Source: an uncultured delta proteobacterium (lineage in GTDB: Bacteria > Desulfobacterota > BSN033 > UBA1163). From it: a stretch of 64,000 nucleotides of DNA. Every line of letters begins with the position of its first letter. Position 1 is the stretch's first letter. The notes below the pieces were generated by a model that worked only from the letters and a program-made list of their open reading frames with translations, had not been told where the DNA came from and ran no database searches. The translations under genes and the position numbers were made by a program. The stretch is from positions 138-64,137 of the forward strand of contig CAWGAV010000020.1 of assembly GCA_963820625.1 (NCBI GenBank). Reading direction: 5' to 3'. This document shows, piece after piece, positions 46,310 through 59,129 of the stretch.

Positions 46310-47085
46310 TTATCTCTGTTCTGTTGTGAGAAAGGTCTTCTTCTCTCCTTCGTCAAGGAAGTTAAGAAGGAGTTCAATCAAAGCGCTGTCACTTCCCCCA
46401 AAATCAGTTTTATACCATTTAAAGATTTTTGAAATGAAGACAATTCCTTCCTGTGGAAGAATCTTTACTTGAGGGCTGTTGACGAAACTCTCGGCAGCGA
46501 GTTGGAGCTGAAAATCAATCTGATCGGCTTCGTAAAAGCCAATAGGCGGGCACGATCGGGCACCGCAGACCAGTGAGAAATGGATTCGTGAATCAAGAGG
46601 AGGATGGCAAACTCCATTCGTGGGTCTTTTTTTCGGAATGGTTTCAGAAGTCCATAAGGGTGTCTACGATTCCCCCGAAGGATACCGTGTTCCATATCAT
46701 TGAGGGAAAAACGAAAGCCCCCAATCTCATACATCACACGATCGAAAAATCCAGAAACCTCCTTGACAGACTTATCGAGACCCAGTTCGATCACACCGTG
46801 AATCACAGCCGTATTATAAATATTAATCCAGAATGCGAGCCTTCGATTCCGTTCCTGAAGGGAACGTAGATCGAACGACTGCAGCCCTTTTGTAAGATCT
46901 TTGTATCGTTCGAACTCCTCAGAGCCACGGATAGCCCTATAATGGACCACGCCTTTCTCGGCGTCGATGAACCGTGCTTTCAGATCAGCCATCGCAAGAG
47001 TTAAGGCGATATCGATGGACTGGTCCAATGAGATTTTAGATGGATCCCCTGCGTTGAGGAGAATCGGTGAGGGATAAATGCTCAC
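46310..47085 (-). pseudogene. DUF547-family protein interrupted by one frameshift (about 46600)
   Basis: Tracked ORF 46465..47085 has LAFWINIYNTAVIHGVIELG. A second frame continues ...DSRIHFSLVCGARSCPPIGFY...FISKIFKWYKTDFGG to TAA 46310. GTG start 47085 overlaps the rhodanese stop (GTGA). Confidence 0.75.
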
Positions 47086-47486
47086 TTCTTTTCTGTTGGG
47101 TAATTGGCCTTAGACCATTCCCACCAGCCACCTTTGAGGGCATAAACCTTCGTGTATCCCATTCCCATCAGCTTTTGTGCCACACTGGCACTGGTCCCTT
47201 CTCGGGGTCAGGCACAGTAGAAAACGAGTGTCTTATCCTTGGGATATTTGTTTGCCCAGGAGTCAAAAGCTTCTGGGTCTTCTCGAACAGCACCCTTAAT
47301 TTTCAAGTCACTATCTGTCCAGTCCCTGCCGTAACGGACATCTATGATAATTAAATCAGGGTTGCCCAGCATTGCCTTGAGTTCATCCTTTGTCATCCTG
47401 GGGGCATCCGCAGATTTGGCAAATGTTGTTAAAACCACAACTGTAAAAAAAATAAATAAGGCGCCTATGAATAATCTCTTTTTCAT
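47082..47486 (-). CDS. secreted single-domain rhodanese with in-frame UGA in the active-site loop (candidate selenoprotein)
   Basis: Tracked ORF 47208..47486 ends ...KDKTLVFYCA-[TGA 47208-47210]. The same frame continues PREGTSASVAQKLMGMGYTKVYALKGGWWEWSKANYPTEKK to TGA 47082. Hairpin GUGCCA-GUG-UGGCAC starts 16 nt 3' of the UGA (47177-47191). Confidence 0.55.
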
Positions 47487-56200: not shown

Positions 56201-57478
56201 ATGAAGGCGATGAAACCGATCAACTATGGCTGGGTGATTGTTGGAGTGGGCGTTCTCGTCAAGATGACAGGCTTAGGGTTTGGCCGGTTTGCTTATCCCA
56301 TGCTCATTCCCAATATGAGAGGATCGCTTGGATTCAACTATATCGAGATGGGACTTTTAAGCGGAGCCATCATGTTGGGTTACCTTCTCTTCTCCCTTAT
56401 TGGTGGAATATTGGCAACACGGTTCGGTCCCAAAAGGATTGTGATCATTTCCCTCCTTTGTAGTGCTCTCTCCATGTTCTCCATCAGTAGATTATCCGGC
56501 CTCCTTCCTCTTCTCTTCTTCAGCTTCGCCATGGGAGCAGGGGGTGCAGGGGCTCACATTTCCATGACCACTTTACCCATGGCATGGTTTGGAGAGCGGA
56601 GATTGGGCAGGGCCCTTGGCGTTGTGACAGGTGGAACAGGCCTCGGCATCATTGTCACGGGTCTTCTGCTTCCCTATCTTCTATTCAATTTGGGGAAAGA
56701 GGCGTGGAGACAGTGCTGGCTCCTTCTGGCCTTGATCACTTTTTTGGTGGTGGTGATCGGATGGATATTATTGAGGGAAAAACCGAACCAGATGTCACTT
56801 CTTCCTTCCGGTCCTGATGGAGATGAAAAATCCATTCTCTCTCAAGACAACAAAAATGGACTCAGCCTTAAGGCAATCTTTATCATCTATTTCATCTTTG
56901 GATTTGCTTATAACATCTATGCCACCTATTTTGTCGCTTATATGGTCGAGGAGATTCGACTTTCAGAAAAAACGGCAGGAAATATCTGGGCCCTCTTCGG
57001 TTGGATGTGTATGGGGAGTGGATTGATTTGGGGGTTTATTTCTGACCGTTTGGGAAGACGAAAGGCCCTGCTCTGGAACAACGGGATCATCGCCTTTTCC
57101 GTTCTCCTTCCTCTTCTGTTCCATCAGTCTTTTATCCTCGGCCTTTCTGCCTTTCTTTTTGGAGCGACTTTTTTAGGAACGGTCACTGTCATTGCTGCAT
57201 CGATTGGAGATCAGGTGGTTGAAAAAAGGGCTTCTGTTTATGGATTGGTTACCCTGATCCATGGCATCGGACAGTTTTTAGGGACAATCTCTGGTGGGTA
57301 TTTAAAAGATTTAAGCGGTTCTTTTCAATCGACCCTTATTGTTTCCCTGATTGGTTTTCTCCTCTGCATCCTCCTGACCACCATTACCCCCCACCCTCTC
57401 CCTCCCCCTCAAGGGGGGAGGGAAGTAGGTGGGGGTGAGGTTAGAGGGTTTCGTAAAACGATTTTTTCAAAAACTTAA
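56201..57478 (+). CDS. MFS transporter
   Basis: About 12 TM segments. The C-terminal about 30 aa (PHPLPPPQGGREVGGGEVRGF...) are translated from a REP-like palindrome and overlap the convergent gene. Confidence 0.8.
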   Translation: MKAMKPINYGWVIVGVGVLVKMTGLGFGRFAYPMLIPNMRGSLGFNYIEMGLLSGAIMLGYLLFSLIGGILATRFGPKRIVIISLLCSALSMFSISRLSGLLPLLFFSFAMGAGGAGAHISMTTLPMAWFGERRLGRALGVVTGGTGLGIIVTGLLLPYLLFNLGKEAWRQCWLLLALITFLVVVIGWILLREKPNQMSLLPSGPDGDEKSILSQDNKNGLSLKAIFIIYFIFGFAYNIYATYFVAYMVEEIRLSEKTAGNIWALFGWMCMGSGLIWGFISDRLGRRKALLWNNGIIAFSVLLPLLFHQSFILGLSAFLFGATFLGTVTVIAASIGDQVVEKRASVYGLVTLIHGIGQFLGTISGGYLKDLSGSFQSTLIVSLIGFLLCILLTTITPHPLPPPQGGREVGGGEVRGFRKTIFSKT

Positions 57479-58049
57479 AGGAAGTTACAAATTTATCGAA
57501 GATCTCAAAAGCCGATAGATCATAAGACGCATCCATAGGTCTCCATTGGGTAATATAGAAACCTACGACCCGATCACCCCGTTTGCCGAAGACCACTTTG
57601 GCTCTGACCTTTTCCTTTTTAATTGGATCTTTCCCTTCGACCGTTACCGCTAGTCCTTCTCCACCCACCACCTGGACTTTTTTCTTCTCCAGGATTTGAA
57701 ACTGGAGGATAGCATTAAAAAGGAATCGTTTAAAGAATTCCTTTTCCCTTTTTTCAAACCCTGGGGTACAACCAAAAGGCTCTTCGTCATAAGCAAAGGA
57801 GGTCACAGAAGGATAGCCTCCAGAGTCTGATTTCATAAATCCAAAATTGATATCATTTTCACCCACTTCCACCCGAAGCAATTTCCAGTCCGGAGGTGGG
57901 GGCATAAACTCAAATTCGTCTTCCCAGATGACCGTTCCCTGAGGAGACAATCGATAAGGAACTTTCTTAGGGGGTTCCGTGGTGGCACATCCCGCAAGCC
58001 AAGCCATCACCAACATCGAACATAGAATCGTCAATGCTTTTCTTTTCAT
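57441..58049 (-). CDS. lipoprotein of unknown function
   Basis: Lipobox MAWLAGC. The start overlaps the peroxiredoxin stop (ATGA). Confidence 0.5.
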   Translation of the reverse strand: MKRKALTILCSMLVMAWLAGCATTEPPKKVPYRLSPQGTVIWEDEFEFMPPPPDWKLLRVEVGENDINFGFMKSDSGGYPSVTSFAYDEEPFGCTPGFEKREKEFFKRFLFNAILQFQILEKKKVQVVGGEGLAVTVEGKDPIKKEKVRAKVVFGKRGDRVVGFYITQWRPMDASYDLSAFEIFDKFVTSFKFLKKSFYETL

Positions 58050-58597
58050 GGTTTTCCTCCTTCCTGATTCAATTTTTTGAGAAAGAGGAGAATGTCTTTG
58101 AAGTCGGGCGAGCCGTCCCTCACATAACGAATGATCCCCTTCTTGTCAATGATGACCGTCCGTCTTCCAAAGATAGGATTTCCTTCAGGCTGGATGTCGA
58201 AAGAGACACCCAAAAAGGCAGTCACATTTGAGAGGAGAGGAAAAGTTAAATCCAAGCCTTTTGCCCAATATTTTAAGGTTGTCACATCATCCCGACTGAC
58301 GCCCAGGACCCGGGCGTTGAAGCGCTCATAGAGGTAGAGATTCCTCTGATGGCCCTCCATCTCGCCCGTTCAGACGGGGGTGAAGGCCGCTGGGAAGAAG
58401 GTAATAATTAGATGATGTTTTCCATAATACTCATCTGCATAGTTGATCAACCGGTCGTGGGTAGAGGGCAGGGTAAAATTGAGTGTCTCTCGACCGATTA
58501 ACTCTACTTTTTTTGCGGCTTCGGCATTGGAAAAGAGAAAAAGAAATAGAAAAAATAGTGAGAATAAAATCCATCGATCAAAGGCCTTTTTTCTCAT
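58046..58597 (-). CDS. secreted peroxiredoxin (AhpC/TSA family) with UGA at the peroxidatic Cys position (probable selenoprotein)
   Basis: ORFs 58370..58597 and 58046..58360 are in one frame (552 nt). Translation: ...HHLIITFFPAAFTPV-[TGA 58370-58372]-TGEMEGHQRNLYLYERFNARVLGVSRDD. The canonical motif is FTPVCTxE. Bulged hairpin at 58327-58351. Confidence 0.75.
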
Positions 58598-58724
58598 TCG
58601 CCCCTCCTTTCATTTTTTTTACAATTTTATAATATTCCCTGTGGTTTTGCAATCTTCCTTTTTCTCACAAAAATGGCTTGCCAAAACATATTGAAGAGTG
58701 CTAAGTTGTTTTTGAGGAAATAAG

Positions 58725-59129
58725 ATGATTGCCTTCGATCTTTTCTGTTCAAACGGTCATAAATTTGAGTGCTGGTTCAAGGACAGTGCCTCTTTCGAGG
58801 AACAAAAAGAGGCCGGAATCATCACCTGTCCTATTTGTGACGATCATCAAATAGAAAAGGCCTTTTCTCCTTTTGCAATCAAAAAGGGTGGGGAGAGGGT
58901 GAAAGAGGAGATCGATCCTCATCAAGCACTTCAGTTGGTCCATGATTATTTGAACAAGCATTTTGAGGATGTAGGGGCTGAATTTTACAAAGAGGCTCTC
59001 AAGATTCATTACGGAGAGGCAGAAACAAGGAATATTAAAGGAACCGCCACGACAGAAGAGGAGGTTATCCTAAAAGAAGAAGGGGTCCAATTCTTCAAAG
59101 TTCCCATCATCAAACGTCTGTTGAACTGA
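58725..59129 (+). CDS. DUF1178-family zinc-ribbon protein
   Basis: MIAFDLFCSNGHKFECWFKDSASFEEQKEAGIITCPICD. Confidence 0.7.
   Translation: MIAFDLFCSNGHKFECWFKDSASFEEQKEAGIITCPICDDHQIEKAFSPFAIKKGGERVKEEIDPHQALQLVHDYLNKHFEDVGAEFYKEALKIHYGEAETRNIKGTATTEEEVILKEEGVQFFKVPIIKRLLN

Follow-up and report, generated by a model that had tools for sequence, protein, structure and literature searches.

Gene organisation of the locus

The window, that is the whole 64,000-nucleotide stretch of DNA that was analysed, comes from an uncultured delta proteobacterium and contains on its minus strand a short operon of two overlapping genes, one for a peroxiredoxin (prx) and one for a lipoprotein. The features of the operon, in the order in which they are read, are as follows.

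58624..58652, minus strand: promoter-like sequence, TTGCAA and TAAAAT with a 17-nt spacer (consensus scan, 9 of 12 matches)
58603..58608, minus strand: Shine-Dalgarno sequence AGGAGG, 5 nt before the prx start, read from the sequence
58046..58597, minus strand: predicted selenocysteine peroxiredoxin gene (prx), 183 aa, with start ATG at 58595-58597 and terminal TGA at 58046-58048
58517..58597, minus strand: putative signal peptide, residues 1-27, consisting of MRKKAFDR, a hydrophobic core and SNAEA, with cleavage before the A that follows
58370..58372, minus strand: UGA assigned to Sec76, the peroxidatic position of PxxxTxxU (P69, T73, U76)
58318..58359, minus strand: hairpin 1, the SECIS candidate, starting 10 nt after the UGA and having an 8-nt loop
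58299..58317, minus strand: hairpin 2, ACGCCCGG-GUC-CUGGGCGU, directly after hairpin 1
58163..58165, minus strand: Arg145 codon, encoding the catalytic arginine that peroxiredoxins conserve (FGRRTVIID), invariant and aligned with the Arg of ANRGTFVVD in M. tuberculosis AhpE (MtAhpE)
57441..58049, minus strand: partner lipoprotein gene, 202 aa, with lipobox LAGC (Cys21) and an ATG that overlaps the prx stop

The promoter-like element is a weak candidate, the scan having found one site where 2.2 were expected by chance. The original prediction described two open reading frames (58370..58597 and 58046..58360, minus strand) lying in one frame and parted by a TGA alone, and re-reading of the sequence found no other stop between them. 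Translated with TGA as U, prx yields 183 residues with a single internal TGA (U76) and a terminal TGA. Three sense codons, ACG GGC GAG (TGE), separate the internal TGA from the ATG at 58360, and the junction reads FFPAAFTPV-U-TGEMEGHQRNLYLYERFNARVLGVSRDD. Translation thus confirms the motif FFPAAFTPV-U-TGEMEG...VLGVSRDD that had been reported for the joined protein.

Domain, fold and subfamily of the peroxiredoxin

The Pfam AhpC/TSA family (PF00578) matches residues 34-159 of the prx product over the full profile (positions 1-124 of 124) with an E-value of 2e-21, so that the domain spans the TGA. In a search of PDB sequences the best solved relative was M. tuberculosis AhpE (E 2e-14, 29% identity), with U76 aligned to the AhpE peroxidatic Cys (FFPLAFTGIC-QGE) and R145 to its catalytic Arg. 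No variation occurs at P69, T73, U76 or R145 in an alignment of 61 orthologs. The claim that selenocysteine takes the place of the peroxidatic Cys is upheld by this alignment, by the extent of the domain and by the retention of the TGA in the orthologs.

An AlphaFold2 (AF2) model of the prx product, built on the 61-ortholog alignment, has a pLDDT of 89 and the canonical peroxiredoxin fold; it superposes on peroxiredoxin structures with TM-scores of 0.85-0.88 and an rmsd of about 2 Å. The peroxiredoxin fold is certain. The assignment to an AhpE-like subfamily is tentative, because by fold alone Bcp1 and Bcp4 of Sulfolobus rank equal to AhpE, superposing on the model just as well. Among the NCBIfam models there is none for the prx product. 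The equivalog model for PrxU, NF040737, gave 30.4 bits against a cut-off of 270, and the prx product is therefore not an ortholog of PrxU. PrxU of Eubacterium acidaminophilum had been invoked as a precedent; as evidence that a class of selenocysteine peroxiredoxins is established the precedent holds, whereas as an orthologous relationship it does not.

Conservation of the in-frame UGA codon

Conservation of the TGA was assessed in 24 other genomes of the same family and in a wider scan of one genome per species, which returned 80 loci. An ortholog with exactly one internal TGA is present in 22 of the 24 same-family genomes, at 59-90% identity, and in each of the 20 same-family loci that were excised the TGA is the codon following FTP-x. 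The 80 wider loci come from metagenome-assembled genomes labelled Syntrophaceae, Thermodesulfobacteriota, Geobacteraceae, Desulfuromonadales and Deferrisomatales. The motif was found in 78 of them, every one of which carries TGA at this codon, at protein identities of 53-91%. TGC or TGT was found at the selenocysteine codon in none of these 78 loci, the lone TGC match belonging to a different, neighbouring peroxiredoxin gene. Furthermore, both before and after the TGA the protein sequence of the orthologs is conserved.

Protein databases give a complementary view. A search of 1.84 billion representative sequences returned just three proteins at an E-value of 1e-30, two of which are pieces left by the split at the TGA. 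P0123, the third, is a relative that bears Cys and whose motif, FIANAFGPNC, is degenerate. No close Cys-form ortholog of prx was found in this library, and the next full-length relatives are Cys-peroxiredoxins of 35-40% identity with Cys at the selenocysteine site. A further record, P0004, was considered as a Cys-form ortholog and rejected, having W at the site; in all likelihood the W stands for this same TGA, translated with a different genetic code. Public databases hold the prx family almost wholly as 104-aa C-terminal fragments named 'peroxiredoxin Q/BCP'.

P0123 itself (186 aa, 50% identity) is the sole full-length close relative and has Cys at the selenocysteine position. The Pro and Thr of PxxxTxxC are gone (FIANAFGPNCTDD), whilst the downstream GHQRNLYLYERLN is retained. 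Judged by its sequence, it may be a Sec-to-Cys convert that has lost its peroxidase function.

Two further observations concern individual relatives. The ortholog at L021 and L067, which are the same genome, has an additional TAA in the part encoding the signal peptide, where the frame is also disturbed, but is otherwise intact and retains the TGA; either the copy is decaying or the assembly is wrong. In some relatives (L057:168 region and G001:C18:1901-3493), further genes for Cys-type exported AhpE-like peroxiredoxins, for example with SFVPAAWTPVC-SDQ, lie within a few kb of the operon.

RNA structure downstream of the UGA codon

Folded as a single sequence, a 71-nt segment has -31.7 kcal/mol (z -3.07). 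Hairpin 1 has an apical stem AGAGG/CCUCU, an invariant bulged C and the loop AAUCUCUA. The hairpin originally described, CAU-C-AGAGG/CCUCU-AUG at 58351..58327 and 18 nt after the UGA, is real and proves to be the upper part of this longer structure, so that its extent has been refined. Across 74 distinct sequences 95% of the cells of hairpin 1 are paired. Double changes from G-C to A-U occur at the loop-closing pair 36-45 (9 sequences) and at pair 24-57 (3 sequences), whilst in the middle stem a coupled change of GGC/GAG to GGU/GAC moves the register and keeps the pairing. In hairpin 2 the paired cells amount to 96%, with double changes at 64-78 (16 sequences), 69-73 (21) and 63-79 (1).

Taken together, the two hairpins have six pairs with compensatory changes. 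The observed percentage of pairing and the covariation score were reached by none of 500 shuffles and by no slid control, and six pairs changed on both sides were reached by one of the 500 shuffles. Mean column identity over the 81 nt around the TGA is 91%, although the proteins are just ~55% identical. Synonymous sites around the TGA are nearly frozen; Arg85, for instance, is always encoded by AGG or AGA. Thus the SECIS prediction called for at the outset delivers a stable hairpin close to the UGA, conserved and backed by covariation.

Two other pairing schemes were rejected. A long-range lower stem (columns 11-16 with 63-68), which appears in the minimum-energy fold of the single sequence, was paired in 84% of cells and had 39 unpaired cells at one pair; a separate hairpin 2 was preferred to it, since this is paired in 96% and has three compensatory pairs. 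An alternative hairpin AGAG-GAAU-CUCU, whose loop would begin with G, is broken in the locus L010, and the change of G36-C45 to A36-U45 fits only the hairpin with the 8-nt loop.

Work with E. coli (fdhF) and Moorella indicates that SelB contacts the leading G (GU) of a small apical loop, a rule which may not hold in the present lineage. The loop of hairpin 1, AAYCUYUA across the family, is without a leading G, in contrast to the loops GGA and GUG that follow the UGA in the SelD and rhodanese genes of the same genome. An Rfam scan of the prx region at a permissive E-value returned chance matches only and no SECIS family. Hairpin 1 is therefore a putative binding site of SelB.

Hairpin 2 shows more covariation than hairpin 1, and some of its changes alter the protein, Ala or Thr being encoded at GCC or ACC paired with GGC or GGU. 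It could belong to the SECIS element, cause the ribosome to pause or affect the stability of the mRNA.

Selenocysteine machinery

The genome assembly (2.34 Mb in 35 contigs, 71% complete) encodes SelA, SelB, SelD and tRNA-Sec. A lack of sel genes, named in the original prediction as fatal to it, is thereby excluded. The conserved TGA, the covarying RNA structure, the selenocysteine machinery and the use of TGA elsewhere as a normal stop together indicate that the TGA almost certainly codes for selenocysteine. On the evidence of the sequence, prx is very probably one intact gene for a secreted selenocysteine peroxiredoxin and a genuine selenoprotein gene.

Other selenoprotein genes are present in the same genome. 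SelD is itself a selenoprotein (KKAGU-ASK; G000:C7:41676-42515, plus strand, locus L003), with the hairpin GUCCAGA-GGA-UCUGGAU following its UGA. A second selenoprotein gene in the window, at 47082-47486 on the minus strand, encodes a small exported rhodanese with a UGA two residues past the active-site Cys (FYCAU-PREG) and the hairpin GUGCCA-GUG-UGGCAC ~16 nt after that UGA.

Alternative readings of the UGA codon

In bacteria RF2 competes with the insertion of selenocysteine, which as a rule is inefficient. It is conceivable on this ground that the UGA of prx mainly terminates translation, releasing a short exported peptide of 75 residues, and that the complete enzyme appears only under a rich supply of selenium, in which case the UGA would act as a selenium-sensing switch. 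Translation of the coupled lipoprotein would then also hang on readthrough. Such a role is compatible with prx being a selenoprotein gene. No evidence was found, however, for a function of the N-terminal fragment, and the conserved residues before the UGA are those of normal peroxiredoxin beta-strands; as the main role of the codon, termination is very unlikely.

Equally improbable is that the UGA is decoded as a standard amino acid (Trp, Gly or Cys), whether by a reassigned code or by near-cognate readthrough. The database record P0004 does show W at the site, presumably from a gene caller that used another code table. Against this, TGA ends 340 of the 971 long open frames of the genome (35%), that of prx included, which argues that TGA has not been reassigned. 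Moreover, a UCA anticodon is found on the tRNA-Sec alone, the sel machinery is complete, and at a redox-active position only Cys or Sec would work.

That prx is an ordinary Cys-peroxiredoxin gene broken by a nonsense mutation or by an assembly or sequencing error might be suggested by the splitting of the gene by gene callers, which has left hundreds of entries as 104-aa C-terminal fragments, and by the additional TAA and N-terminal frame problem of the relative L021 (= L067), but this reading is effectively refuted by conservation: the same TGA occurs in 98 independent assemblies with TGC or TGT at the site in none, the protein is strongly conserved on both sides, and so is the downstream RNA structure.

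Predicted export and cysteine content of the peroxiredoxin

With UGA-76 of prx taken to encode selenocysteine, the location and chemistry of the product can be considered. Its N-terminus, judged by eye, consists of MRKKAFDR, the hydrophobic core WILFSLFFLFLFLF and SNAEA before A. A basic and hydrophobic leader is found at the N-terminus of all orthologs examined, so that the signal-like N-terminus noted earlier is a feature of the family, likewise by eye. This leader, common to all orthologs, points to export of the prx product to the cell envelope with cleavage of the signal peptide. In the loci L080, L083, L088, L089, L091, L093 and L106 (Desulfuromonadales and Trichloromonas) the leader ends in a lipobox-like LAC or LSC followed by A/V-P, and in these organisms the enzyme may itself be lipid-anchored.

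The mature part of the protein is without cysteine in 73 of 73 orthologs. The selenocysteine is consequently the sole redox residue, and the enzyme can be described as a '1-Sec' peroxiredoxin that has to be recycled from outside.

The lipoprotein partner and the gene neighbourhood

The start of the partner gene and the stop of prx share the four bases ATGA (58046-58049). Wherever the locus leaves room for it (78 of 80), a homolog of the partner follows prx immediately, and in most of these 78 loci the same 4-base overlap is seen together with a GGAGG within the end of prx. At least 90% of partner orthologs have the lipobox Cys. Translational coupling to a lipoprotein gene, proposed from this single locus, is thus borne out by the overlap and the lipobox seen here and by their conservation across the family; the envelope location suggested at the same time gains support from this coupling and from the conserved signal peptide.

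The partner lipoprotein has no match in Pfam or NCBIfam. Its AF2 model (pLDDT 86) is a predicted alpha-beta sandwich which Foldseek relates, with a probability of 1.0, TM-scores of 0.5-0.6 and 10-17% identity, to PsbP, DcrB, LpqN and EagT6-SciW. Several of these proteins, to which the partner is likened by its predicted fold, are envelope lipoproteins or protein-binding chaperones, and the PsbP/DcrB-type fold typically serves to bind other proteins. We know of no member of this fold that is paired with a peroxiredoxin. From the order of the genes and a structural match with moderate TM-scores, one may speculate that the partner docks or tethers the prx enzyme at the membrane. Cys94 of the partner was considered as a resolving thiol and rejected, since about ten orthologs have no Cys at all beyond the signal-peptide and lipobox region and elsewhere the positions vary; with no conserved internal Cys the partner is not a donor of a resolving thiol.

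Among the 80 loci no third conserved neighbour was found, such as a thioredoxin or a reductant supplier of the CcdA/DsbD type, and DUF1178, MFS and macro-domain neighbours are common to close relatives only. In the window a divergent DUF1178 gene (PF06676, 1e-38) lies at 58725-59129 on the plus strand and encodes a zinc-ribbon-like CxxC...CxxC pattern. DUF1178 adjoins prx in 17 of the 80 loci; because these are limited to the closer Syntrophia relatives, the adjacency probably reflects synteny by descent.

Relation to known peroxiredoxins

Selenocysteine peroxiredoxins with PxxxTxxU form an established family (PMC13188914), known since PrxU (Sohling et al. 2001, as cited in PMC13188914). The family 'Prx, PF00578, TxxU / PxxxTxxU' is included in every catalogue of prokaryotic selenoproteomes, from that of Zhang et al. 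in 2006 (PMC1794560) to a review of 2026 (PMC13188914), and has catalogued members in Syntrophus aciditrophicus, Syntrophobacter fumaroxidans and Geobacter metallireducens (PMC1794560). The likeness of prx to the catalogued proteins, which is one at the level of the family, extends to the AhpC/TSA fold, the peroxidatic UGA, PxxxTxxU, a SECIS hairpin within the coding region and an occurrence in anaerobic Deltaproteobacteria, and no family-defining feature differs. Since selenocysteine peroxiredoxins have been catalogued from 2001-2006 onwards, Syntrophus and Geobacter included, the enzyme class and the recoding mechanism are already known and prx is a further member. Our literature search found no paper singling out an exported, Cys-free, lipoprotein-paired selenocysteine peroxiredoxin, or a selenocysteine AhpE.

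PrxU of E. acidaminophilum is, to our knowledge, the only selenocysteine peroxiredoxin to have been characterised biochemically. It has Sec at the peroxidatic site, as has the prx product, and is a cytoplasmic protein of the Prx1/AhpC type. By contrast, the prx product is predicted to be exported, is smaller and is without cysteine. The best solved relative by sequence, the 1-Cys peroxiredoxin MtAhpE (Rv2238c; PDB 1XVW, 1XXU, 4X0X), shares with the prx product the motif FFPxAFTxxC/U-xGE, the lack of a resolving Cys and a similar size, and superposes on the prx model with a TM-score of 0.87 and an rmsd of 1.9 Å. MtAhpE differs in having Cys instead of Sec and in being cytoplasmic.

The main value of these observations lies in annotation. 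Public gene calls cut prx into pieces of ~75 aa and 104 aa in hundreds of assemblies, with the result that what appears to be an antioxidant enzyme of the cell envelope, widespread among syntrophic and metal-reducing anaerobes, is absent from proteome and selenoproteome counts. Furthermore, a subfamily seen only with Sec, free of Cys, apparently exported and paired with a lipoprotein raises the question of what reduces a periplasmic 1-Sec peroxiredoxin.

Proposed mechanism

These findings suggest the following scheme for a two-gene operon, the first gene of which would encode a secreted selenocysteine peroxiredoxin. SelB carrying Sec-tRNA(Sec) would bind the hairpin that begins 10 nt past UGA-76, so that selenocysteine is inserted instead of termination taking place; the conservation of the UGA, the presence of the hairpin and the sel genes lead us to infer recoding driven by SelB. 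The 183-aa product, bearing what its sequence suggests is a cleavable signal peptide, would then be sent to the cell envelope. There Sec76, in a pocket with Pro69, Thr73 and Arg145, would attack peroxides and be converted to the selenenic acid, as expected from the established mechanism of peroxiredoxins. Like the 1-Cys enzyme AhpE, the Cys-free '1-Sec' enzyme would depend for its recycling on a reductant from outside. The partner lipoprotein, coupled to it in translation and with a predicted protein-binding fold of the PsbP/DcrB type, would most likely, if speculatively, serve to dock or tether the enzyme at the membrane.

A broader proposal, which we consider rather unlikely, is that the pair of selenocysteine peroxiredoxin and PsbP-fold lipoprotein constitutes a thiol-free module for envelope peroxide defence in anaerobic Thermodesulfobacteriota and Desulfuromonadales. 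In such a module the membrane-tethered enzyme would be regenerated by a small reductant from the habitat, for example sulfide, and not by a protein of the thioredoxin type. Selenium would be obligatory, because selenenic acid, unlike sulfenic acid, would survive where the supply of reductant is poor. Sulfide is a candidate reductant by analogy with MtAhpE, with the oxidised form of which it reacts at ~1.4e3 M-1 s-1 (as cited in PMC12697902).
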